Shown: positions 1 to 30,259, counted from the first letter of the stretch. The stretch is 30,259 nucleotides of DNA from a virus (IMGVR_UViG_2718217795_000001:1-30259); one strand, 5' to 3'. A program made the numbers and translations. Notes: generated by a model not told the origin, from the sequence alone.

Positions 1-1167
1 CTACTCGCTTTCCTCCGAGCTGTATTCCACGTCAGAAAGCTTAACCTCAAGCTCTAAACCCGTCGTGAAGCCGCTATTACTCAGAATGTGAGTTACCTTA
101 CTGATTAACCAAGATTGCTCATCTATGACGCGCTTAAAGCCTGATACGCGCACCGGCGTCTCAGGGAACAAGTCAGCTCGACCGAAAGCCAGCGTAATTG
201 AAAACTCCGCAACGCCTCGCTGCAGCTTATCCCACTTAGCCTGAGCGGCGCGCATCGCCTGCGCCTTAGAAGCGTAGACAGTCGTCAGCGCCAGCACGTT
301 ATCGGCCTCACCGGCCATATACTCACCCTCGCGCGCCTCCGGCTCTTGTTTGGCCTTTGTCTTTTTGCTAACTGGCTTTGCTTTCGGGTGCTCCAGTGCG
401 CGCAGGTGCTTCTCTTTTGGCTTGCGTTTCAGTGTTACTTTCTGCTTTTGCGGCTTCGGGTCTTTGGTGTGCAACCATTTTGCCGTTACGCCGGTATAAG
501 CCCCACGGTCAGCAATGGCAAACTGGTGACGGTCGCCATCGCTGCGGGTCAGCGTCATTTGCGGGACGGGTTTACCGCTGGCCGTCATCGCACTACCGGC
601 TTTCAGAAACAAGAGTTTACCCGCTTTCACTGACACCTCCGCCCCGTTGCGGTCAGCCAGCCGGGTCAGAAATACGGCGTCGGACTCCTGCGACTGGTCG
701 ATGTGCGGTACCGGTATTTTTTTCAGTGAATCCGCGACACTGGCCGTCAGTTTATTGCGCTTTGCAATGGTACTGACCAGTTCACCGATGGTGGTGTCGT
801 GCCATGACTCCTCACGCCGTGAATTGAGCGTTCCGCGAAAGTCTGCACTACGCGCCCGGATGGTCAGGGTATCAGGTGCGCCCCGATGCTCAATCTCATC
901 GACCGTGAAATCGCCCTTATTCAGAAGCGCCGAACCCTGCCAGCCAAGCCACAGCGTCAGCACCGCCCCGCGCAGGGGTAACTCGACTTTGCCGTCGGTG
1001 TCGTCGAGCTCAATGTCGAGCTGGTCAGCCTCAAAACCCCTGTTGTCGGTCATGGTGAGAGAAATCAGCCGGTCACTAAAATTGCTGGTAATGTCCTGGC
1101 TGTTCAGCGTCAGCATAAATGCCGGTGCAATGCTGGTACCGGCGTCAATTGTCATGCCCGTAATCAT
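1..1167 (-). CDS. D: Tail protein D (late control gene D family), 388 aa
   Basis: ORF-track protein recognisable as P2 gpD-like; ATG at 1165-1167 overlaps the upstream gene stop (ATGA); position 3' of U/T in conserved P2 order. Window begins exactly at its stop codon. Confidence 0.9.
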   Translation of the reverse strand: MITGMTIDAGTSIAPAFMLTLNSQDITSNFSDRLISLTMTDNRGFEADQLDIELDDTDGKVELPLRGAVLTLWLGWQGSALLNKGDFTVDEIEHRGAPDTLTIRARSADFRGTLNSRREESWHDTTIGELVSTIAKRNKLTASVADSLKKIPVPHIDQSQESDAVFLTRLADRNGAEVSVKAGKLLFLKAGSAMTASGKPVPQMTLTRSDGDRHQFAIADRGAYTGVTAKWLHTKDPKPQKQKVTLKRKPKEKHLRALEHPKAKPVSKKTKAKQEPEAREGEYMAGEADNVLALTTVYASKAQAMRAAQAKWDKLQRGVAEFSITLAFGRADLFPETPVRVSGFKRVIDEQSWLISKVTHILSNSGFTTGLELEVKLSDVEYSSEESE

Positions 1168-1652
1168 GCGGTCAGCCCTCCGAGCGCACCCTGCAGCTTA
1201 TCAGTCAGATTACCGGCAGAGCCGAGAAGCTCGCTGGCCTGCTTATTCAGGTCGCCAAACATTGCCGTCAGTGATTCGTCGACCCGTTTCAGCGAAAGGG
1301 TGAAATCAATCTTTCTGGCCGCGCCGTCGCTGAAAAACTCGGTATGCGTGGTCGACACCGTCTCGACGATATACATCCCGAAGATATTTCCGGTTCCCTC
1401 AATCAGCGGCCACGCTCTGCCCTCGTCGGCCATCAGCTCGACAGCCAGCAGAGATATACGACCGCCAGTAATGGCAGGATAAAGCGTACCGGCAAGCTGG
1501 ATCGCGTTTTCCCCCTCGCCGAGAAACTGATACGCAGGAGCTTTGCCGACCCGGTCATTAGACGCCCAGCGGTAATTCTTCGAGTGCTGCATCGACTGAT
1601 AAGGCAGGGTGCGACGTTCAAACACAAACATTCCAAGAGCAAGCATCATCAT
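1164..1652 (-). CDS. U: Tail protein U, 162 aa
   Basis: P2 gpU-like sequence and position between T and D; three consecutive ATG codons at the 5' end with AAGGAGG RBS upstream, exact start uncertain within 9 nt. Confidence 0.88.
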   Translation of the reverse strand: MMMLALGMFVFERRTLPYQSMQHSKNYRWASNDRVGKAPAYQFLGEGENAIQLAGTLYPAITGGRISLLAVELMADEGRAWPLIEGTGNIFGMYIVETVSTTHTEFFSDGAARKIDFTLSLKRVDESLTAMFGDLNKQASELLGSAGNLTDKLQGALGGLTA

Positions 1653-1660
1653 CAGCCTCC

Positions 1661-4102
1661 TTAATCGTGCATCATGCTAGCGCGGGCTTTGGCTCGCTTG
1701 TCGCGTTCATATTTTTCTAACGCATCCTGCAACTGGTTACCCAATTGACCACCCGGCGCGCCGCCACCCGGCAGGTTTATTTGATAGGTAGGGCTGCTCT
1801 GGTCAATATAGGTACGACCGGCGGGAGCCGTGACAGGTTGATAAGCCTGATACCCACCAAGCGAGCTGGTTGTCGGAATATACCCTCCACCCTGACCAAC
1901 CGGCGGCGTTTTTGCCGTTTCCGTATCAATACTGCTCGATTCCTTTTTAACAAGGCCGAGCTTTTCGAGAATTACATCAAGACCACCGCGCAGCTTATTG
2001 AAAATATTCAGAGGCAACATCAGCGCATCGGCCAGTGCCTGACCAAATATAACGCCGACATTTTTGCAGCTATCTAGCGTCTCCTGCGTGGCTTTGACCG
2101 GTGCAATCAGGTCTTTAAACCATTGCCAGACGCCGCGCAGCTTCTCACCGAGGCCGTCAAAAATGGGTGCCAGTGGGGCGAACATTTCCCCTACCGGTGC
2201 AAAGGCGCTCATGATGCCCTCAATCACCCCCGAGAAAAATGCGCTGATGGGCTCCCAATATTTGCGGATGAGTAGCGCCCCGGCCACAATCGCCGCACCG
2301 ACGGCCACAATCGGCCAGGTAATCGCACCGAGCGCTGTCATAATGGCACCACCGGCAACAGTAAAGACCGTACCCAGCACGCCAGCAGCGGCGATAATGG
2401 CGTTAATCCCCATCACAACCGGCCACGCAACGAGACCAATGCCGCCGATGATACCAATCAGAGCAAGTGCGCCACCGGCAATGATGCCGATGGTTTCCGC
2501 CAGCCCCTTATTTTTCTGGATCCAGCCGTCGAGCTTTAACACATACTGCGTGGCCGTTTGGGTAAGCTTGCGCAGTGAGCCCTCTTGCTGGTCATAGAGG
2601 TCAGTACCGACCGCCTCGTAAGCCGACTGAAACTCTTTAAAATCACCGCCGAGGTTATCCTGCATAACCTTGACCAGTTCCTCGGTTTTTCCGTCGGATG
2701 CCTTAATCGTAGCGGTGAGTTTATCGAGCTTTCCGCTTGCCGCTGCGGCCATCAGCACACTTGCAGACTTCATGGCCTCCTCGCCGAATATAGTTTTCAC
2801 ATATTCAGCTTTCTGACCAGTTCCGAGCTTGTTGCGCTCAAAACTGGCCTGCATTTCTTTCAAGATGGTAAATAACGGGCGCGTATTGCCTTTGCTGTCC
2901 GAGGTTTTAACACCCAACTCTTTGAGGGCATCGTATGCTTTGCCTGTTGGTGCCTGTAGTCTCGTTATTACAGCCGCGCCGCCCGTCCCAGCCATTGACC
3001 CCCTGATGTTATTATCATGAAGTGTGCCGGTAATCGCCGCCGCTTGTTCAAGACTCACTCCGGCATTTTTCGCAACAGGGGCAAGGTAACTTAATGAGTC
3101 ACTTAGTCCCTGAAAATCAGCGGTGGTTTTGTTCATCGTGGTTGAAAGAACATCACCAATATGTGCAGCCGCGTCATTAGAAAGCTGAAAGGCGGCTTTT
3201 GTCCCCATCAACAGTTGCGCGTTTTCCTCCATTGTTTTTCTGTTCGCAAGTGACAGGTTGAGAGTCACAGGCGTCATGGCCGCTATAGCTTCAGCATCAC
3301 CACCACCTTTTGCGATAATAATCTGCGCACTGGCGGCATCATCGGCAGAGGCGGCAGTATTGTCACCGAGCTGGCGCGCCTGTTTGCGTAGCGCCTGCAT
3401 TTCTGGCGACTGCTTATCTACCCCGAGCACGGCCTGCAGCTCTGAATTTTTCTGCGCAAAGTCATAACCGGGCATCAGTAATTTAACCCCGGCCATCGTT
3501 CCCGCTGTCGCGATACCGACCCCGGCAGCACCTGCTGCGGCCATGTTACCGGCGAGCTCTTTACCTGATTTGTATCGCTCTTTCACCCGACTTAATTTCG
3601 CCTGCTGCGCACTGACGCGCGCCAGTGCCTCGCGCTGTCGGTTAAGCTGCGCCGTCGTTTCGCTGATAGAGGTTTTGAGCCGACGCTCATCGGCAGACAG
3701 GGTGCGGGTATTAATACCGGCCTGCATCAGCTCGGAGCGCTGTCGCTGTACCGACGTTCTCAGGCTGTTGTATTTCGTTTGCAGCTCAGAGGCGGCGCGC
3801 TTTGCCGCTTCGAGTGCCTGCGCCTGCGCGCGGGTCGGACTGGTGGTGTTTTTAAACTGCACGGCCAGCTCACCGGCTTCGCGCTTCGCCTTTTCAAGCG
3901 CCTGACTGGTTACGGCCAGTTGCGCACTTGCCTTACGAAAGCCGTCGATTTTCGATGCCTGACCATTCAGGTCACGCAGCCCCTTTTGTGTGTTGCGAAT
4001 ATCACCCGAGAGGGTTTTACTCGCGGTCTGGATGGATTTAAGCGGTCGGGTCGCCTGGTCGACCGCTTTCAGTAATACCTCAAGCCTCAGGTTATTACTC
4101 AT
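1661..4102 (-). CDS. T: Tail tape measure protein T, 813 aa
   Basis: Long coiled-coil-rich N-terminus, Gly/Ala-rich hydrophobic central segment, size and position typical of P2 gpT; ATG at 4100-4102 overlaps end of E' frame. Confidence 0.9.
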   Translation of the reverse strand: MSNNLRLEVLLKAVDQATRPLKSIQTASKTLSGDIRNTQKGLRDLNGQASKIDGFRKASAQLAVTSQALEKAKREAGELAVQFKNTTSPTRAQAQALEAAKRAASELQTKYNSLRTSVQRQRSELMQAGINTRTLSADERRLKTSISETTAQLNRQREALARVSAQQAKLSRVKERYKSGKELAGNMAAAGAAGVGIATAGTMAGVKLLMPGYDFAQKNSELQAVLGVDKQSPEMQALRKQARQLGDNTAASADDAASAQIIIAKGGGDAEAIAAMTPVTLNLSLANRKTMEENAQLLMGTKAAFQLSNDAAAHIGDVLSTTMNKTTADFQGLSDSLSYLAPVAKNAGVSLEQAAAITGTLHDNNIRGSMAGTGGAAVITRLQAPTGKAYDALKELGVKTSDSKGNTRPLFTILKEMQASFERNKLGTGQKAEYVKTIFGEEAMKSASVLMAAAASGKLDKLTATIKASDGKTEELVKVMQDNLGGDFKEFQSAYEAVGTDLYDQQEGSLRKLTQTATQYVLKLDGWIQKNKGLAETIGIIAGGALALIGIIGGIGLVAWPVVMGINAIIAAAGVLGTVFTVAGGAIMTALGAITWPIVAVGAAIVAGALLIRKYWEPISAFFSGVIEGIMSAFAPVGEMFAPLAPIFDGLGEKLRGVWQWFKDLIAPVKATQETLDSCKNVGVIFGQALADALMLPLNIFNKLRGGLDVILEKLGLVKKESSSIDTETAKTPPVGQGGGYIPTTSSLGGYQAYQPVTAPAGRTYIDQSSPTYQINLPGGGAPGGQLGNQLQDALEKYERDKRAKARASMMHD

Positions 4103-4582
4103 TGTGGTTTCCGCTACGCTGCAGCGCCTTTTCGCGCCATGTGATGAGCTCGGTCAGGCTCAGGGAATAGAGCTCTGATGGCGGCCAGTGGAATATCACC
4201 GCGATATCCGCCATCAGGTCATCGGTCGACAGGTCGGGCGGAAAATCTATTCCGCCGAAGCCGGTGACAAAAAACCAATCACCTTAGCGGCCAGCGACAG
4301 CATATCGGGCAGGTTCATTGCGGTAAGCTCCTGCGCCGTGAGCGCGGGATAGGTCATACGGGGCAGGACTTTAATCAGCGCATCGACTTCGGACTGCGCC
4401 ACCGCTGCCAGACTGACACCGCGCAGGGTACCGGCGTTCGGCTCAATCAGGGTGACTTTATCAATCGTCTGACCGGCGCGCTTAATCGGCTTGTCGAGGG
4501 TCACGACGTTCGGGTTTATGGTGTCAATTTCATTGCCAGCCGTATCAACAAATTCAGCGGTTTTACGTGGTGCTTTTGCCAT
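4095..4582 (-). CDS. E+E' tail assembly chaperone made by programmed -1 frameshift
   Basis: Slippery run GGTTTTTTG on the coding strand (plus 4268-4276); the -1 frame is open from the slip site to a TAA at 4095-4097 that overlaps the T start codon, reproducing the P2 E/E' arrangement. Confidence 0.7.
4247..4582 (-). CDS. E: Tail assembly chaperone E, 111 aa
   Basis: Position immediately upstream of T, ATG start at 4580-4582, ends KVIGFLSPASAE with a T-rich slippery site inside the last codons. Confidence 0.85.
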   Translation of the reverse strand: MAKAPRKTAEFVDTAGNEIDTINPNVVTLDKPIKRAGQTIDKVTLIEPNAGTLRGVSLAAVAQSEVDALIKVLPRMTYPALTAQELTAMNLPDMLSLAAKVIGFLSPASAE

Positions 4583-19557: not shown

Positions 19558-19651
19558 TGCCCGCTTAACGGGTCGCTTTTAATGCAGGTGCATCAGGAGC
19601 CCCGAGCCGCGCCAGCGCTGGCGCTGGCTCACAAATTCTGGAATCAAAAAC

Positions 19652-19681
19652 GCATGCAATTTAATGCAAGATAATGCATTC
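19652..19681 (+). repeat. Three tandem ~10-bp repeats with core ATGCA(A/T)
   Basis: cgcATGCAAt / ttaATGCAAg / ataATGCATt, helically phased, ~110 bp upstream of the cassette start codon. Confidence 0.5.
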
Positions 19682-19730
19682 AAATTGAGTTTATGATACT
19701 GATCGGTCAGTCATGCCTTCATTCTTAGGT

Positions 19731-19760
19731 TTGATATGGCACAGGCTACCTTGTAACAAT
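19731..19760 (+). promoter_or_regulatory. Candidate sigma70 promoter of the AT-rich cassette
   Basis: TTGATA (19731-19736), ~18-nt spacer, TG-extended AACAAT (19752-19760); AAGGTG RBS 6 nt before the ATG at 19789. Confidence 0.35.
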
Positions 19761-19788
19761 TAGGGATTTTTCAAAAAGGTGACTACCC

Positions 19789-20847
19789 ATGGCAGGTGAA
19801 ACTCAAAATATTTCAGCAATGGCGGAAAAGATATCTTCCGATTTATTTAAGTGGTTCAAGTGGGAGCTTGTTGGGGTAACCAATGAAAACTTTCAGTGTT
19901 TGAAGTCTACGCAACATAAAACAAAGTCTGGAACACACCCGACTGATGTTGTTTTTTCCTATAAGGATCCATACTTAAATCGGACGATTTTTTTAAATAC
20001 AGATTTAAAAAGTTATGTAAAAGGGTCGATAACAGCAACCTCAATGCGAAACGCATTAGTCTCATTGGCTAACTCTATTGATTGCGCAGAAGGTAGCAAG
20101 GAATGGAAGGATAGATACTCTTATCAAAGTGGCTCTTCTGAGGTTAGAGGAATGCTCTTTGTATATAATCATGATGGTGAGTTTGACAGATCGTTCTATG
20201 ATGTGTTTTATCAGTCTTATAATGCAGAAACTGATAAAACAAAACGGGGTATTAACCTTGATAATATTCCTCTAAAACAAGGTCAGAAGATTCATATTAT
20301 TGAGCCGAGAACTATAAATTATTTGCAATCAATAATTACGGACTTGTCTCAACTGAGTCACAATCGAGAATTTCCTTTAGGTAAAAATTACCAGTTCTTT
20401 TACCCAGACCTATCACTTCATAAAGTTAGCGGGTCACCTGAAGAACACCCGGCAACAGTAGAGTTGTTAACGGGGCCTTTTTTGATAATTAAACACAACG
20501 ATGTTAAACATTGTGATGAAGAAACTTTAGAGTGGAAAACAACCTATAAGCATGGTTATGTTATTTATTACAATGGCGAGGGTAATAATGAATTAGAGTT
20601 TGTTTATATTCTTGATACGTTATCAAAATACCAACTCTTGGATGGAAATGAAAAGATAAGAATTAGAATTGTACATCCAAGCATTTATAAAGATGTTCGC
20701 AGTATTTTTATGCGTGCTAAGGAAACATACTGTAGAGAATGGGGTTTCGATGAACATAAAAAAACCATCATTGATGCCATTGATTTTCACCAAGTTGAAT
20801 TTACAAAACCTCACTTCAGTTCTGTTGAGATTGGTTGGGAGCGATAA
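19789..20847 (+). CDS. Cassette gene 1: hypothetical protein, 352 aa, possible PD-(D/E)xK nuclease fold in N-terminus
   Basis: ATG with RBS; ~35% GC; N-terminal pattern E26 ... PTD52-VVF ... IFLNTD72-L-K74 fits a restriction-endonuclease-like core; no Walker A/B. Confidence 0.6.
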   Translation: MAGETQNISAMAEKISSDLFKWFKWELVGVTNENFQCLKSTQHKTKSGTHPTDVVFSYKDPYLNRTIFLNTDLKSYVKGSITATSMRNALVSLANSIDCAEGSKEWKDRYSYQSGSSEVRGMLFVYNHDGEFDRSFYDVFYQSYNAETDKTKRGINLDNIPLKQGQKIHIIEPRTINYLQSIITDLSQLSHNREFPLGKNYQFFYPDLSLHKVSGSPEEHPATVELLTGPFLIIKHNDVKHCDEETLEWKTTYKHGYVIYYNGEGNNELEFVYILDTLSKYQLLDGNEKIRIRIVHPSIYKDVRSIFMRAKETYCREWGFDEHKKTIIDAIDFHQVEFTKPHFSSVEIGWER

Positions 20848-20849
20848 GT

Positions 20850-21974
20850 ATGAAAATCGGTTTGTATAGCGTTAATGACAAAGCTATGTTTGATGCTCTC
20901 AATCAAACAAAGGTGACTCATGAAGACATGAAAAGCCTTTTTTTCAAAAGAGGCACTATTATTTCTAAGGATACAAAACGGAAGACTTTAGCTTTGGATT
21001 TTTCGAAGAACTTCCACGGCTATTATGACTTTGAATATTTATCAGAAATTCTTGGATCTGTAGGGAGAAGAGAGAAAGTATCAATTAATATTGTCAACAG
21101 TGCAATTAGTTTAAGTGATATGGAAGTCACAATAAAATCTATATGTGAAGAATTACAAAAAGAGGGGGATGTAACAAATATCAATTACACCGAGAATGGA
21201 TTTGAGGTGTCAGTAAAATATGTCAAGCTGGATTTTAAAATGAGCGAGTTTCGGCAATCCTCATCTCGCGAGGCTAAAATACAAGTAGAGTTGAATGATG
21301 AGGGAGAGTATATTACGCGCTTCCCTCAGAATGCCAAGGCACATGAGTTTAATGAACTTTTGATTAAAAAAATAAAAGAAACTAATAATGATGAGCCTGT
21401 AAGTCTTGAAGAGATATCGCTTGAAACGGTCAAAGATTCAAATGAACGTAGTCGTTTCTTTAAAGAACTGATCGTTAGTATGCCAAATTACAAATGTGTC
21501 GATGTGTCAGATGTTTATGTCACCCATCCAGTATTAGAGGTTAAAAAACCATCTGAATCTGAAGATGATGAAGATGACTCGGATGAGGATGATGATGCTG
21601 TAATAGACACTGGGTATCATATTTCAAAGGCATCATTGAAAGGAAGGGGTGTCCTTGAATCACCAGAACTGGAAGAGTTATTGGGTAATGGGTTTTACAT
21701 TACAAAGATAATATGGAGTTCGGTAGTCGAAGGTTTTAAAGACTCCGATAAGTATGAATTCGAAGCCCAGTTTGTGGATCCGGATAAATGTAAGCTGTTT
21801 TCTTATCTCGTTCGTGGATGTTATAAATATAAAAAAGTAAATGTGTTTACTAATCGGCAAAATGTGGATAAGGAAAAAGAAAATGTGCTATTATTATCAA
21901 TAGAAAAAACGGCTCGAGAAATCTCTAATAGAATAATATCTTTAAATACTCTCGAGGTAGTCACTGAAAAATAA
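20850..21974 (+). CDS. Cassette gene 2: hypothetical protein, 374 aa, with poly-acidic linker
   Basis: Track start is a TTG at 20835 overlapping gene 1; ATG at 20850 follows GGGAG RBS and lies 2 nt after gene 1 stop. Run SESEDDEDDSDEDDD at nt 21552-21596. Confidence 0.6.
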   Translation: MKIGLYSVNDKAMFDALNQTKVTHEDMKSLFFKRGTIISKDTKRKTLALDFSKNFHGYYDFEYLSEILGSVGRREKVSINIVNSAISLSDMEVTIKSICEELQKEGDVTNINYTENGFEVSVKYVKLDFKMSEFRQSSSREAKIQVELNDEGEYITRFPQNAKAHEFNELLIKKIKETNNDEPVSLEEISLETVKDSNERSRFFKELIVSMPNYKCVDVSDVYVTHPVLEVKKPSESEDDEDDSDEDDDAVIDTGYHISKASLKGRGVLESPELEELLGNGFYITKIIWSSVVEGFKDSDKYEFEAQFVDPDKCKLFSYLVRGCYKYKKVNVFTNRQNVDKEKENVLLLSIEKTAREISNRIISLNTLEVVTEK

Positions 21975-21985
21975 AAGGAGTTGTT

Positions 21986-22657
21986 ATGAAAACAAAATGG
22001 TTTACTGCCAACTTCCCTGCCGGTCTCGATAGGTTATACCAGGCCATCATAAACACGCCTTTTGACAGTGACAAAGGTTGGGGGTTTAGTATTCTTTCAT
22101 ATGAAGATAAGTATATATCTTCAAAATATATTGAAAGGGTTGAGGTAAGCGAAGTAATCATAGACCCCTATGGTAATGAAACTGAGTTTAATCATTTCAA
22201 ATATGTGCAGTTTAACTTTTGGTTTTTTAAAGCTCAAGGCGGTAACTTCATTTTAATAATTGATTCTCCGCCTAGAAGTATCAAGGGTTTTATCTCCAAT
22301 GTGATTAAGGCAACTGAATCCGATTTTAATGTTTCTTATCTTGTGATTCAAATTGATGAGTTTATAAAATTTATCACGCCTCACTTCGAAAAGGTTCAGG
22401 TGCACAAGGCCAAATTAAAGGATTTGACTTTTAGTAAAAATACATCTGGCATTTTAGAACTTGAGTCTTCAAATGACGCGATAGATGAGATGAGAAATAT
22501 TTTTAAAAATGCAAAATTCACGATTGATAAAGTTAAATTGAGTGTTAAATCTAACACTGGCAATGAAACATTAGAAGTGAATTCCAATGGTTCTCTTAGC
22601 TTCTCAGAGGAGCTTTTTGATAAGATATTCTCTGCAGTTGAGCGTTTCACTTTCTAA
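21986..22657 (+). CDS. Cassette gene 3: hypothetical protein, 223 aa
   Basis: ATG 11 nt after gene 2 stop with AAGGAG RBS; AT-rich; no recognisable motif. Confidence 0.6.
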   Translation: MKTKWFTANFPAGLDRLYQAIINTPFDSDKGWGFSILSYEDKYISSKYIERVEVSEVIIDPYGNETEFNHFKYVQFNFWFFKAQGGNFILIIDSPPRSIKGFISNVIKATESDFNVSYLVIQIDEFIKFITPHFEKVQVHKAKLKDLTFSKNTSGILELESSNDAIDEMRNIFKNAKFTIDKVKLSVKSNTGNETLEVNSNGSLSFSEELFDKIFSAVERFTF

Positions 22658-22666
22658 GATAGAGTT

Positions 22667-22706
22667 GAAAAGCACTCTTAGTAAAATAAGGGTGCTTTTC
22701 ATTTTA
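22667..22706 (+). terminator. Rho-independent terminator after the cassette
   Basis: Stem AAAGCAC(tctta) / (taagg)GTGCTTT with loop, followed by TTTTCATTTT, 10 nt after gene 3 stop; near-palindromic so possibly bidirectional. Confidence 0.6.
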
Positions 22707-22847
22707 ACTTTAAAAGTTTTTCGAAATCCGAAAGTGTTCGCGAGATTTGTTACCTCGTATTCATTTTGATTAGCGAGTTTTTATCAAGGTCAATGCTCTT
22801 ATAGGTATCGAAACCTGAGCCCGCATGTAATACCCGGAGCTTAAATT

Positions 22848-23030
22848 CTATTCGGCTTTATAGAAAATATCCGGGTCATCCTCAGCACTTTCACTGTTCG
22901 CTAAATCAGCAATAAGAGTGAGTGCGAGCTTAAGGTCTGACGGTTTGCAATTTGCAATCAGAGACACCTCTGCAATGAATTGTACACAAGCCCACTTTTG
23001 CTGAGTTCGGCTGAAATGTTCGCCAACCAT
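22848..23030 (-). CDS. Small SOS-regulated ORF, candidate Tum-like antirepressor (possibly truncated), 60 aa
   Basis: ATG with GGGAGGG RBS, about 20 bp downstream of a near-consensus LexA box; occupies the position between gene A and cos where 186 carries tum. No sequence homology asserted. Confidence 0.4.
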   Translation of the reverse strand: MVGEHFSRTQQKWACVQFIAEVSLIANCKPSDLKLALTLIADLANSESAEDDPDIFYKAE

Positions 23031-26939: not shown

Positions 26940-27449
26940 TCAAATCAGACCGAATGACGCGCCAATACCGCTCATGGTATCGACAACACTCGTCATTGCT
27001 GGATTGGTCTGCAAACGTGCATGCAGCGCCAGTGCCGACAAAGACAACATGCGAATACCGGAGTTAACGCTTTCAATCATGGTGTGCTTACGGGCAGAGG
27101 TCAGACGCTCATCAGAGACCGCGCCGCTCGCCAGTTCGCCGAGTTCCCGCATAGCACGCATGACGTAAGACTGTAATTTGTCTTTTGCCAGCTCGTTGAC
27201 CGGTACACATGGCAGGCAATGAATCTGAGCCAAAAAACCATCAACTAAGGCTGAGTCTTCGGTCAGGTCTGTCAGTAGCCATAACTCAGGTGGGGTGAGC
27301 TGGTGAGGCTGTTCCGGGTTGAGCTTGTTACGTAACGTCTGAACATTCATTCCCGCACGTTCGGCAAGCTTCGTCATGTTGTGACGTTGAGCGAAAGCAC
27401 GACACGCATCGTCATAATGGGGATGTTTGGAAATCTGAAAATCAAACAT
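26940..27449 (-). CDS. cII: CII-like lysogeny-establishment regulator, 169 aa (start corrected)
   Basis: Track start is a TTG; ATG at 27447-27449 with GAGGGA RBS gives MFDFQISKHPHYDDACRAFAQRHNM... and exactly 169 aa, the length I recall for 186 CII; second gene of the early operon as in 186. Confidence 0.7.
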   Translation of the reverse strand: MFDFQISKHPHYDDACRAFAQRHNMTKLAERAGMNVQTLRNKLNPEQPHQLTPPELWLLTDLTEDSALVDGFLAQIHCLPCVPVNELAKDKLQSYVMRAMRELGELASGAVSDERLTSARKHTMIESVNSGIRMLSLSALALHARLQTNPAMTSVVDTMSGIGASFGLI

Positions 27450-27481
27450 GGTTAAGTTCCCTCTAACTTGCATAATCAAAT

Positions 27482-27853
27482 TCAGTTAAGAGCGGTGCGC
27501 TGGTCGATGTAGCGACAATCAATCGCTTGTTGAGTCAGTTTGTCGCGCCATGCTTTTACGTTTACGAGGGTGCGGCTTCGTTTACCGGCTTCCTCTTTGT
27601 TGGAAAAGTCTTTGGTCGGAGCTTTAAGAAGAATGCCCTCATCAAGCCATTGCCAGACCAGACGCTCGCTAACGCCGCGAGTGGCAGCAAAGTCTTTCAC
27701 TGTCATGGTGTCGGACATTGCAGAGCGAATCATTGTCTGCAGGGCTGGCAGCATTGCTGTAACGATGGCGTCAAACTGAGTGGGGTCTAACAGCACAGTT
27801 TGATTTTGTGAGTTTTGCGAGTCGTGCATCGAGATTGATTTTGCATCTGACAT
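27482..27853 (-). CDS. Apl/Cox-like HTH excisionase/regulator, 123 aa
   Basis: First gene of the early lytic operon, divergent from cI; AGGAGA RBS; core MTVKDFAATRGVSERLVWQWLDEGIL is an HTH; has an unusual ~45-aa N-terminal extension. Confidence 0.55.
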   Translation of the reverse strand: MSDAKSISMHDSQNSQNQTVLLDPTQFDAIVTAMLPALQTMIRSAMSDTMTVKDFAATRGVSERLVWQWLDEGILLKAPTKDFSNKEEAGKRSRTLVNVKAWRDKLTQQAIDCRYIDQRTALN

Positions 27854-27863
27854 ATCGCATTAT
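27835..27863 (+). promoter_or_regulatory. Candidate lysogenic promoter (pL/Pc-like), rightward
   Basis: TTGATT-N17-CATTAT overlapping the apl-like start; would fire toward cI, face-to-face with the leftward promoter. Confidence 0.3.
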
Positions 27864-27916
27864 CTCCTGTTGTTTGAAATGTGGTGCAGTGGTGTGCATC
27901 TTGGTCGATAAGCGCC

Positions 27917-27945
27917 ACTATAGATCGTAAAAAGTTATCTGTAAA
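27917..27945 (-). promoter_or_regulatory. Early lytic promoter (pR/Pe-like), leftward
   Basis: Minus strand reads TTTACA-N17-TATAGT (plus 27940-27945 and 27917-27922), ~55 nt upstream of the apl-like start. Confidence 0.6.
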
Positions 27946-27965
27946 CACCCATAAAATTATCTGTA
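27922..27965. repeat. Direct repeats TTATCTGTA (x2) plus degenerate AGATCGTAA over the lytic promoter: candidate CI operators
   Basis: TTATCTGTA at 27935-27943 (overlapping the -35) and 27957-27965, 22 bp apart; related AGATCGTAA at 27922-27930 next to the -10. Confidence 0.5.
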
Positions 27966-27974
27966 GGGGTTTTT

Positions 27975-28838
27975 ATGAGTTCTGAACTCGATGTTCAGTG
28001 GCGTATAGGTGCATCAAATGGCGTGTTAGAGCGCGTAATGTCAGCCTATGGCGTCAAGATGCAAAAGGATTTAGCTGACCTGTTGGGCATCGCTAAACAC
28101 AGCGTTAGTGGCTGGGTTCAACGCGATGCAATACCCGGCAATGTCATAGTTAGGTGTTGTCTTGATACTGGTGCTGATATCAATTGGCTTGTAAGTGGTG
28201 AGCTTGCAAATGCAAAACATGAGCGAGTCGGTTGCAAGCTAAAGGGCAAAGAACTCTATGACGAGATCATGACGAACGGGGGCAAAACCGTTTTGCGCAG
28301 AATTCTTGATGCTTATGGGTTTACGATGCAAAAAGAGCTTGGTGATTTATTGGGTATTTCTTCCGGCACTATAAGCACTTGGGTCAGGCGTGACTTTTTC
28401 CCGGGCGATGTGGTGGTGACCTGCGCACTTGACACTGGCGTTTCGTTGGAGTGGCTTTCTACAGGCAAAGGCAAGATGCGAGAAGGCAGGGAAAGTGAAT
28501 CTCTTAGCGCCTTAACAGTAAGAAAATGTCGCCTTGAAGCTGGCGAGCTTAAAGATATTGGGCGTTGGACTCCAGACCTTACAATGGTTCCTGAAAACAT
28601 TGATGAATTGATCTTTATTGATGGAGTAGGCGCATCTTGGCTTGTTGATTGTTCTAACTCAAAGATCGGTAATGGTCGTTGGCTTATTGGCATTGATGGT
28701 GCGCTCGATGTTTTTGATGTCATCAGGTTACCAGGTGGAAAGGTCAGGCTTTCAAATAAGTCTGCGGAGTTTGAATGTAATCTTTCAGACATCACACCAT
28801 CAGGTGCAGTGATTTTTACTTTGGAAAAGCATGTTTAA
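27975..28838 (+). CDS. cI: CI-type immunity repressor with tandemly duplicated N-terminal HTH domain, 287 aa
   Basis: Divergent from the early operon; residues 17-75 and 106-164 are ~50% identical copies of a 186-CI-like HTH module; distinct C-terminal domain. Confidence 0.7.
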   Translation: MSSELDVQWRIGASNGVLERVMSAYGVKMQKDLADLLGIAKHSVSGWVQRDAIPGNVIVRCCLDTGADINWLVSGELANAKHERVGCKLKGKELYDEIMTNGGKTVLRRILDAYGFTMQKELGDLLGISSGTISTWVRRDFFPGDVVVTCALDTGVSLEWLSTGKGKMREGRESESLSALTVRKCRLEAGELKDIGRWTPDLTMVPENIDELIFIDGVGASWLVDCSNSKIGNGRWLIGIDGALDVFDVIRLPGGKVRLSNKSAEFECNLSDITPSGAVIFTLEKHV

Positions 28839-28847
28839 GGAGCAGTT

Positions 28848-29186
28848 ATGAAAAAGTTATTATTTTTGATGGCCGGTATCGCGCTTTCTTCCTCAGCCTT
28901 AGCCGCTGAGAAATTTAAAGAGATTGATAGTAAATCTCTTGGTGATAAGTGGCCGCTTACCTTTGAGCATGCAAAAGTATCTTGTGTAAACAGTCACTAC
29001 GTTTTTGTTTATGACACTGACACGGATGAACGCTACCCCTTAAGCGGCATGGCTAAGAACGCCGTCAAGTCTGGAAAAATGGAAGGGCGAGATTTAAAAG
29101 AAGTTCTAAAAAAAGACCCTAACGATCCATTAGAACGAGCTGATATTGCTCCTGTTTTCAGTGAAGCCATAGCGCTTTGTGAATAA
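28848..29186 (+). CDS. Secreted small protein (moron) between cI and int, 112 aa
   Basis: AAGGAG RBS; N-terminal signal peptide MKKLLFLMAGIALSSSALA-AEK with AxA cleavage site; AT-richer than the backbone. Confidence 0.65.
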   Translation: MKKLLFLMAGIALSSSALAAEKFKEIDSKSLGDKWPLTFEHAKVSCVNSHYVFVYDTDTDERYPLSGMAKNAVKSGKMEGRDLKEVLKKDPNDPLERADIAPVFSEAIALCE

Positions 29187-29209
29187 AAATATTTGGCCTC
29201 GGTGTAGCT

Positions 29210-30259
29210 ATGACAGTTAGTAAGCAAAAAAACGGTAAATGGTTATGCGAGCTTTATCCAAACGGTAGGGAAGGGCGGCGTATTCGTCGGCATTTCAATA
29301 CAAAAGGTGAGGCCGAGGCATTCGAAACATTTACGAAGAATGAAAGTGAGGACAAGCCTTGGCTCGGCAAAAAAGAAGATCGCCGACGCTTAAGCGAGTT
29401 GATTCAACTCTGGCATAACCTGCATGGACAGGCTTTAGTCGCCAGTAAGTCGCGGTTAGCAAAGCTGCAAATTGTGTGTAACGGTTTGGGCGACCCAATT
29501 GCATCCCGCTTTACCGCTAAAGATTGGGCTCATTACCGCGACCGCCGACTCCGTGGTGAAATAGACAACGGATATCATAAAGACCCGGCGAAATGGGTCG
29601 CCAAACCCATAACCGTGAATCGTGAGCAGCAATATCTTATAGCTGTGTTTAATGAGCTGCGGCGGTTAGGGGAATGGAGTTTACCCAACCCACTGGAAGG
29701 GGTGCGCGTATTCAAAGAAGCCGAGAAAGAAATGTCCTGGCTAACTCTTTCTCAAATCCCTGAGCTGTTTCGAGCCTGCGAGCAATACGGCAAAGAGGAT
29801 CTCACGATGATTGTCAAAGTCTGTCTTGCAACCGGCGCAAGATGGGGGGAGGCCGAGAGATTGACACGGCCTCAACTCTCTCCCTGCAAACTGACTTTCA
29901 CAAAAACCAAAGGTAAGAAAAATCGCACCGTTCCCATTCCTAAATGGCTGTATGACGAGCTAGCCGAACGTCAGGGCAGAATGTTCAAGCCCTGCTATCA
30001 GGAGTTTAAAAAGATGCTCAAACTCACGAATATCGAGCTAACTGAAGGGCAAAAGACGCATGTCCTGAGGCATACATTCGGCGCGCATTTTATGATGAAC
30101 GGCGGAAACATACTGGTACTGCAGAAAATCCTCGGACATTCCAACATTCGCGAAACAATGAGATACGCGCACTTTGCTCCTGACCATTTAGAGCAAGCCG
30201 TCTCTCTCAATCCTCTTTCTCTCTATGTTGGCGACAATATGGCGGCAGAGGTTGCATAA
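29210..30259 (+). CDS. int: Tyrosine integrase (P2/186 Int family), 349 aa
   Basis: C-terminal catalytic signature HVLRHTFGAHF ... LGHSNIRETMRYAHF; last gene before the expected att site; stop codon is the last 3 nt of the window. Confidence 0.93.
   Translation: MTVSKQKNGKWLCELYPNGREGRRIRRHFNTKGEAEAFETFTKNESEDKPWLGKKEDRRRLSELIQLWHNLHGQALVASKSRLAKLQIVCNGLGDPIASRFTAKDWAHYRDRRLRGEIDNGYHKDPAKWVAKPITVNREQQYLIAVFNELRRLGEWSLPNPLEGVRVFKEAEKEMSWLTLSQIPELFRACEQYGKEDLTMIVKVCLATGARWGEAERLTRPQLSPCKLTFTKTKGKKNRTVPIPKWLYDELAERQGRMFKPCYQEFKKMLKLTNIELTEGQKTHVLRHTFGAHFMMNGGNILVLQKILGHSNIRETMRYAHFAPDHLEQAVSLNPLSLYVGDNMAAEVA

Follow-up and report, generated by a model that had tools for sequence, protein, structure and literature searches.

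A YebY-family gene with a predicted export signal as conserved operon cargo between cI and int in PSP3-type prophages

A small gene located between those for the repressor and the integrase in a temperate phage raises two questions: is it a recent passenger or an established part of the phage, and what might its product do for the lysogen? We address both for a stretch of viral DNA of 30,259 nt, which was analysed as a whole and is called the window here. From inspection of the window alone (the sequence-only reading), the gene had been proposed to be a moron for lysogenic conversion. A moron is a transcription unit of its own that has been inserted into the genome of a phage, a definition that reportedly goes back to Hendrix/Juhala 2000.

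The open reading frame in question spans positions 28848-29186 on the plus strand and encodes 112 aa from an ATG start, with the stop codon included in the interval. As the window contains 74 open reading frames of at least 90 aa, many of which are spurious overlaps, the length by itself does not prove that this one is a gene. It is the homology and conservation described below that led us to accept 28848-29186 as such, and judging from the sequences we regard it as a real, selected gene for a small protein of the YebY family (DUF2511) with an export signal. A Shine-Dalgarno motif, AAGGAG (28837-28842, plus strand), is located 5 nt 5′ of the ATG and overlaps the stop codon TAA (28836-28838) of the preceding cI gene. 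Two antisense open reading frames, 28899-28997 and 29033-29227, were considered as genes and found to be unsupported, as the conservation pattern matches the plus-strand frame. The GC content of yebY amounts to 41.0%, compared with 45.6% for cI, 48.5% for int and 52.9% for the entire window. The gene is thus AT-richer than its neighbours, as had been claimed, but the deviation is modest: among windows of 339 bp its GC content ranks at the 11th percentile, and cI matches it in AT-richness over its 3′ third.

By a heuristic reading, codons 1-19 (28848-28904, plus strand) are predicted to encode a Sec signal peptide for SPase I, MKKLLFLMAGIALSSSALA. It consists of an n-region (MKK), an h-region (LLFLMAGIALSSS) and a c-region, with the predicted cleavage between ALA and AEK. 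The hydrophobic core has 13 residues and a top Kyte-Doolittle 9-mer value of 2.64, and residues A19, A20 and E21 at the cleavage site are invariant or nearly so across the alleles. The remaining stretch (28905-29186, plus strand) holds the mature YebY/DUF2511 domain of 93 aa together with the stop codon, as indicated by Pfam, the PDB search, the alignment and an AlphaFold2 (AF2) model. The mature protein is predicted to have a mass of about 10.5 kDa, an acidic pI of 5.2 and two cysteines. A lipoprotein reading could be ruled out, since the signal peptide has no lipobox Cys and the cleavage site reads ALA followed by A. From the n/h/c pattern and the AxA site, the protein is predicted to be extracytoplasmic. 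This heuristic assignment agrees with the periplasmic location of E. coli YebY, which has been determined by experiment (PMC8689200). The earlier description of a small secreted protein with a strong ribosome-binding site is in accord with both the AAGGAG motif and the canonical signal peptide.

The assignment to the YebY/DUF2511 family, which the sequence-only reading had offered tentatively, is substantiated by the domain search and by the modelled fold. The Pfam model PF10709 (DUF2511/YebY) matches with 57.5 bits (cut-off 21; E=1.8e-15) over profile positions 6-87 of 87, and the PHROG group phrog_2950 matches over the full length (positions 1-112 of 112, E=1.2e-45). A sequence search of the PDB retrieved E. 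coli YebY (7N0J, E=7.7e-9) and, as a weak match with a WPLT motif in common, MlbQ (2MVO). The AlphaFold2 model, with a mean pLDDT of 86 and values above 90 across residues 21-110, has the four-stranded antiparallel sheet packed by helices that characterizes the YebY fold. In a Foldseek comparison the seven top matches are all chains of 7N0J (TM 0.91-0.93, rmsd 1.1-1.4 Å), followed by MlbQ (2mvo/6qfp, TM 0.64/0.50, prob 1.0); nothing further was significant. According to Hadley et al. (J Biol Chem 2021/22), who solved the structure of the periplasmic, disulfide-bonded E. coli YebY, the hallmarks of the family are a first conserved Trp and two disulfide cysteines (PMC8689200). In the window protein, Trp35 (in DKWPLT), Cys46 and Cys111 align with Trp37, Cys48 and Cys113 of E. 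coli YebY, and a Cys46-Cys111 disulfide in the family position is therefore predicted; the MlbQ equivalent of the conserved Trp is Trp71. All three residues are invariant in an alignment of 21 homologues, in which 32 residues are invariant altogether although its members go down to 49% identity to the window protein. Scans of the yebY protein against NCBIfam (no matching model), the 2.0 release of PADLOC-DB (0 defence families at E<=1) and the viral structure library BFVD (no significant fold match) gave no hits, and an Rfam scan of the whole window revealed no RNA family.

The immediate surroundings place yebY in a tightly packed unit, which bears out the earlier remark that it is located on the lysogenic strand, with cI on one side and int on the other. 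Upstream is the cI repressor gene (27975-28838, plus strand; 287 aa), which is of the 186 type and encodes two PF07022 HTH domains and the CI C-terminal domain. Downstream is a tyrosine integrase gene (Int_N + Phage_integrase; 29210-30259, plus strand; 349 aa), the last gene of the operon in the window. The distance from the cI stop to the yebY ATG is 9 nt, and that from the yebY end to the int start 23 nt. These three plus-strand genes diverge from the lytic operon, which begins with an apl/cox-like gene (27482-27853, minus strand; 123 aa, phrog_3554) followed by cII (26940-27479, minus strand). A pR-like sigma-70 promoter, TTTACA-17-TATAGT (27917-27945, minus strand), is assigned to the lytic operon. 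Two exact copies of TTATCTGTA in direct orientation (27935-27943 and 27957-27965, 22 bp apart) lie on either side of its -35 element, a short distance upstream of the start of cI, and are candidates for operator half-sites; over the whole window the 9-mer shows no enrichment (4 matches with at most one mismatch vs 3.6 expected). On the plus strand, a consensus scan of positions 27400-30259, which weak signals could escape, detected neither promoter-like nor terminator-like sites. Since yebY thus has no plus-strand promoter or terminator of its own, we consider it operon cargo on the lysogenic transcript. In the annotation of phage 186, the pL/pE lysogenic operon comprises cI, int and orf69 and then a terminator. 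By analogy, cI is presumably the first gene of the lysogenic operon in the window, and yebY would be co-transcribed with it from pL/pE-type promoters and expressed in the lysogen.

Some peculiarities of the neighbouring genes deserve mention. The double-HTH CI of 287 aa is considerably longer than the CI of 186 (192 aa). In the loci examined, this long form nearly always accompanies yebY; an exception is the distant relative L082, in which a single-HTH CI of 194 aa is paired with a YebY. The cII reading frame as called has a TTG start and 179 aa, and all relatives are annotated with 169 aa from an internal MFDFQ..., so that translation probably begins at the ATG located 10 codons further downstream. 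The gene at the apl/cox position has marginal similarity to Cox (Pfam E=0.028; phrog_575 E=1.6e-4), in agreement with the description of its PSP3 counterpart as a singleton (PMC3448106). The int stop codon (30257-30259) coincides exactly with the window end, and therefore attP/attR must lie outside the window. In the genome loci examined that encode an identical YebY, the prophage adjoins genes for DUF2946, PepSY_TM and yfiB-yfiN-yfiR-like proteins (OmpA-like, CHASE8-GGDEF, DUF4154).

A comparison of related loci answers the question whether yebY is a recent passenger. In a set of 74 related loci, the gene order cI-yebY-int is found throughout, and yebY encodes exactly 112 aa in every case (44 distinct proteins, no indels, frameshifts or stops). 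The slot is likewise occupied in phages PSP3 (gp28/orf28), SEN1, SW9, SI22, Midge, RCIP0057 and vB_EcoM-613R3, and 59 IMG/VR contigs contain relatives with yebY at this place. Among 5426 complete E. coli genomes, 134 (~2.5%) match the region and are counted as containing the gene, which occupies the cI-int slot in at least 64 of these 134; hosts of yebY-bearing prophages also include Salmonella, Klebsiella and Enterobacter. The identical protein occurs in the same slot in at least six NCBI assembly loci, with 18 further similar places, and is indexed in 207 blocks of a genome collection. A scan of genome contigs yielded three loci, among them one of Enterobacter vonholyi with cII, apl, cI, yebY and int proteins at 100% identity.

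At the same time, cI abuts or overlaps int without an intervening yebY in 186, Fels-2 and Yersinia Eganviruses (e.g. Yersinia phage MDG45). Some of these phages share more than 90% identity with the structural genes of the window. Relative to these phages, yebY is an extra gene, and to this extent the notion of a gene inserted between cI and int stands. A recent insertion, however, is not what the data indicate, because the same slot is filled in all 74 loci as well as in more distant clades. The sequence-only reading had itself named conservation at this position across the family as evidence against its proposal, and precisely such conservation was found, among the PSP3-type loci and beyond. 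We conclude that yebY is an old, fixed component of the immunity/integration module of PSP3-type (186-like, Eganvirus) phages. The term moron has to be given up as well: the genes on either side are adjacent in related phages (186, Fels-2, MDG45), as in a moron, but an own promoter and terminator were not found in the scanned region, the gaps measure only 9 and 23 nt, and in base composition the gene departs only mildly from its surroundings. Strictly speaking, we regard the gene not as a moron but as conserved cargo of the operon.

Some relatives harbour extra cargo within the same operon. In L043 (2570-2974) and L014, a 134-aa open reading frame that has a signal peptide but matches no Pfam domain is located between cI and yebY. 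In L039 (3355-3861), L040-L042 and L077-L080, a protein of 166-168 aa with bPH_3 and SHOCT domains is encoded downstream of yebY, which represents a variant of the yebY/int interval. In view of these additional reading frames, the cI-int interval behaves as a small cargo slot. The strongest compositional outlier of the window is found elsewhere, namely a 3.3-kb island at 19600-23000 with 32-36% GC, bordered by the portal/terminase genes on one side and replication gene A on the other. Its three plus-strand open reading frames (19789-20847, 20835-21974 and 21986-22657) have no Pfam domains and match the PADLOC models Hp1 (E=3e-65), Hp2 (E=6e-36) and Hp3 (E=5e-8), respectively, names that we take to stand for the three-gene '3HP' candidate defence system from P2 hotspots. 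This island at 19.6-23.0 kb is the real moron-like cargo of the phage.

The yebY alleles differ strongly among the phages. The window protein is a distinct allele with 49-59% identity to its homologues in PSP3, SEN1, SW9, SI22, Midge, RCIP0057 and vB_EcoM-613R3, and in a neighbour-joining tree it represents the earliest-branching lineage of the phage clade. A gene-by-gene comparison with phage Midge gave identities of 100% for int, 98% for apl, 91% for cII, 68% for cI and 49% for yebY, which makes yebY the most divergent gene of the region. Sliding-window identity plots revealed recombination breakpoints at the cI/yebY junction in L025 and at the yebY/int junction in Midge and L051, and further breakpoints inside cI in PSP3 and L016. 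Since the identities of cI and yebY are uncoupled, yebY reassorts as a cassette of its own; strict co-inheritance with cI as a single immunity cassette was rejected on the basis of the L025 breakpoint and these uncoupled identities. From these comparisons the yebY alleles appear to be old and to reassort independently of cI and int.

Pairwise dN/dS values (Nei-Gojobori) at all divergence levels are 0.13-0.18 for yebY, 0.08-0.13 for cI and 0.03-0.04 for int, with synonymous sites being saturated between yebY allele classes. The values for yebY point to purifying selection, and gene-wide positive selection is ruled out at every divergence level. Variation is concentrated in the signal peptide, in residues 22-31 and in the alpha3-beta5 segment (residues 81-101), and residues 33-48 (WPLTFE..VSC) and 62-80 (RYPL.G...V.SGK.EG) are almost fixed. 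One allele pair, L072/L073, ends in ...ALWE and not in ...ALCE. This C111W exchange removes a disulfide Cys, the counterpart of which is essential in E. coli YebY, and these two genes may be inactive copies.

To place the phage proteins within the wider family, a profile search of 1.84 billion cluster representatives was evaluated. It returned 638 family members, with a single representative at E<1e-30; the next-closest ones share 31-33% identity with the window protein. The genes for P0018, P0019 and P0020 directly follow a 186-type CI in P2-like prophages or remnants, and those for P0021, P0023, P0024 and P0031 adjoin other regulators (HTH_31, WYL-like, HTH_3) or ogr in phage-like contexts. 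In total, three separate YebY clades directly follow prophage regulators (186-type CI, HTH_3, WYL-like). The neighbour-joining tree contains four groups: the PSP3/window group (99% bootstrap), a second CI-linked group (85%), a third group from phage contexts (98%) and the chromosomal AZY group (99%); the deep branching among the four is not resolved. Recent capture of a host yebY as the origin of the phage gene was ruled out, given 29% identity and separate clades. Phage and host genes can be found in close vicinity. In L077/L078, positions 1-4339 hold a degraded prophage remnant (integrase fragment, CI, phage-type YebY, bPH_3-SHOCT) immediately downstream of the host CopD(yebZ)-yebY pair, so that two YebY paralogues are about 3.5 kb apart. 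A Yersinia prophage integrated beside a YebY gene has also been described (PMC12653942).

The gene and its position have been on record before, both in databases and in one paper. Hadley et al. noted that in several Enterobacteriaceae the gene for YebY is flanked by one for a site-specific recombinase of the XerD type and one for a protein that bears the HTH domain of phage CI repressors (PMC8689200), which is exactly the cI-yebY-int arrangement of the window. The annotation of PSP3 gp28 dates back to the genome record of that phage, and homologues are labelled 'DUF2511 domain-containing protein' in RefSeq and 'putative periplasmic protein', with DUF2511, in Midge. Literature searches on PSP3 gp28, phage YebY and prophage DUF2511 found no experiment on a phage-encoded YebY. 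Two proteomics papers that name DUF2511 offer no tie to the prophage protein, and a peptide in one of them resembles chromosomal YebY.

What, then, could such a protein do? Our best explanation, which we put forward tentatively and with considerable reservation, is that YebY is a periplasmic binding protein made by the lysogen and active at the envelope, where superinfection exclusion would be its most likely role. The gene would be transcribed along with the repressor from pL/pE-type promoters, and owing to this co-transcription YebY would be made continuously in lysogens. After export, the protein would be locked in the periplasm by the Cys46-Cys111 disulfide and serve as a small soluble binding module that shields the lysogen at the envelope. 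The likeliest mode of action would be binding to a periplasm-exposed part of an incoming phage or of its entry route, resulting in the exclusion of superinfecting phages. The conserved face (WPLTFE..C, RYPL.G, SGK.EG) would contact a constant partner, and the variable alpha3-beta5 surface would track a changing one.

We are led to exclusion because the gene is adjacent to the repressor, because family members recur after unrelated prophage regulators, and because deep alleles reassort as cassettes; the variable surface segment and the further cargo gathering in the same slot point in the same direction. The peptide binding proposed for MlbQ and the damping of YebZ by YebY would both fit a periplasmic binding module (PMC8689200, PMC11923076). 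On the other hand, PADLOC gave no match, and dN/dS over the whole gene is far below 1. The exclusion proteins known so far are mostly membrane proteins or lipoproteins, and soluble periplasmic ones are rare. Moreover, the functional data for a Gram-negative member of the family concern copper import only, and not phages (PMC11923076). The high allelic divergence of yebY can be explained by age and recombination, with no need for an arms race.

A broader proposal, which is more doubtful than exclusion itself, holds that phage-borne YebY proteins constitute a widespread, multi-allelic and repressor-linked class of periplasmic effectors in P2-like prophages, and possibly others, that function in exclusion or in another form of envelope conversion. 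Each would be a soluble binding module with its specificity set by the variable alpha3-beta5 surface. If this is true, a characterization of these proteins would reveal the biochemical function of the chromosomal YebY family as well.

The main rival to the exclusion proposal relates to copper. Prophage YebY could hinder the host YobA/YebZ (CopC/CopD) importer and lower the entry of copper into the cytoplasm, which would amount to a lysogenic conversion that alters metal handling and possibly also antibiotic responses that depend on mar. Fold, Trp and disulfide positions correspond to those of E. coli YebY, and the blocks DKW, YPL.., SGK and DP, common to phage and chromosomal proteins, could form an interaction surface. 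A 2025 follow-up study found that co-expression of YebY with YebZ diminishes YebZ-dependent copper accumulation, and the host genera Escherichia, Salmonella, Klebsiella and Enterobacter are reported with AZY-like operons (PMC11923076). The same study, however, observed that a single yebY deletion in E. coli left the copper reporter unaffected (PMC11923076). Furthermore, the window protein shares only about 29% identity with E. coli YebY, the phage clade (99% bootstrap) stands apart from the AZY clade (99%), and conserved metal ligands are lacking, since among the phage alleles no His or Met is conserved and only the two disulfide cysteines are. AZY proteins are encoded with yobA (CopC) and yebZ (CopD), but yebY has cI and int as its neighbours, both in the window and in each of the 74 loci. 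With yobA and yebZ missing from its vicinity and the phage proteins in a clade of their own, we do not count the window protein as a member of the AZY operon. The occurrence of family members after several unrelated prophage regulators argues for a role in the phage lifestyle, and many deep alleles that reassort as cassettes would be unusual in a housekeeping-type modulator. We therefore consider copper-import damping rather unlikely.

An immunity function in the manner of MlbQ appears improbable, and more so than the copper reading. Here, YebY would sequester a peptide antibiotic, a bacteriocin or a tailocin component in the periplasm, and would guard against competitors and not against phages. 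Allelic diversity would suit diverse toxins, and MlbQ is the second-best structural match, supported by the weak sequence match with the common WPLT motif. Lantibiotics, however, are generally kept out by the outer membrane of Gram-negative cells, genes for bacteriocins or ABC transporters do not adjoin yebY, and MlbQ is a tethered lipoprotein, whereas the window protein is predicted to be soluble. As to its ligand, MlbQ has been proposed to bind the lantibiotic NAI-107 (PMC8689200).

It is very hard to maintain that yebY is a functionless hitch-hiker, or a spacer or translational-coupling element for int expression. The literature searches turned up no phenotype, and the C111W allele pair has lost a disulfide Cys, but a dN/dS of 0.13-0.18, the 44 distinct proteins of uniform length without a frameshift or stop in 74 loci, and 32 invariant residues at identities down to 49% speak for a protein that is maintained as such. 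Scarcely credible, too, is a recent, strain-specific moron that was acquired horizontally between cI and int as an independent transcription unit: the GC content below that of the neighbouring genes and the absence from 186, Fels-2 and Yersinia Eganviruses would be compatible with it, but it is contradicted by the comparative sequence data, i.e. the occupied slot in all related loci and more distant clades, the recurrence of the identical protein in the same slot, the lack of promoter and terminator in the consensus scan, and the location of the phage's real low-GC island (33-35% GC) elsewhere.

A secreted protein that would be produced alongside the repressor in every lysogen, and whose gene has stayed intact throughout the existence of the module, is well suited as a candidate for lysogenic conversion or exclusion. 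With its recurrence after different prophage regulators and the reassortment of its cassettes, the question of function is cheap to test, and the answer could also clarify the ligand of the chromosomal YebY/MlbQ fold.

Among known systems, the envelope superinfection-exclusion proteins T4 Sp, T5 Llp, phi80 Cor, HK97 gp15 and P22 SieA offer a functional analogy only; on the exclusion proposal, the window protein would act from the prophage state. They are small, phage-encoded and exported to the envelope, but membrane-anchored or lipoproteins, unlike the window protein, which is predicted to be soluble; PADLOC and BFVD indicated neither a sequence nor a fold relation to them. Prophage cargo genes and morons, such as lambda rexAB, 186 orf69, P2 old/tin/fun and the genes between int and repressor of cluster N mycobacteriophages, resemble yebY in being extra genes relative to close relatives, on the lysogenic strand, beside the repressor and lower in GC. 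In contrast to these, yebY has no autonomous promoter or terminator and is fixed clade-wide rather than sporadic, and family scans revealed no homology of its protein to rexAB, orf69, old/tin/fun or cluster N cargo. The Microbispora lantibiotic self-resistance protein MlbQ (2MVO/6QFP) shares the DUF2511 fold and the WPLT motif at about 21% identity, but is a lipoprotein that has a long unstructured tether and stems from an actinobacterium, where it is encoded in a lantibiotic cluster with ABC transporters (PMC8689200). E. coli YebY (AZY operon, 7N0J) is closer in fold, Sec signal peptide, Trp and the C-terminal Cys paired with the Cys of beta2; it differs in its separate clade and its yobA/yebZ neighbours, the window gene being part of a prophage lysogeny operon. 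The closest relatives are the proteins of the PSP3 gp28 group (phrog_2950), with which the window protein shares the family, the length of 112 aa, the slot between a long cI and int, and the strand, and within which it represents a distinct, earliest-branching allele.
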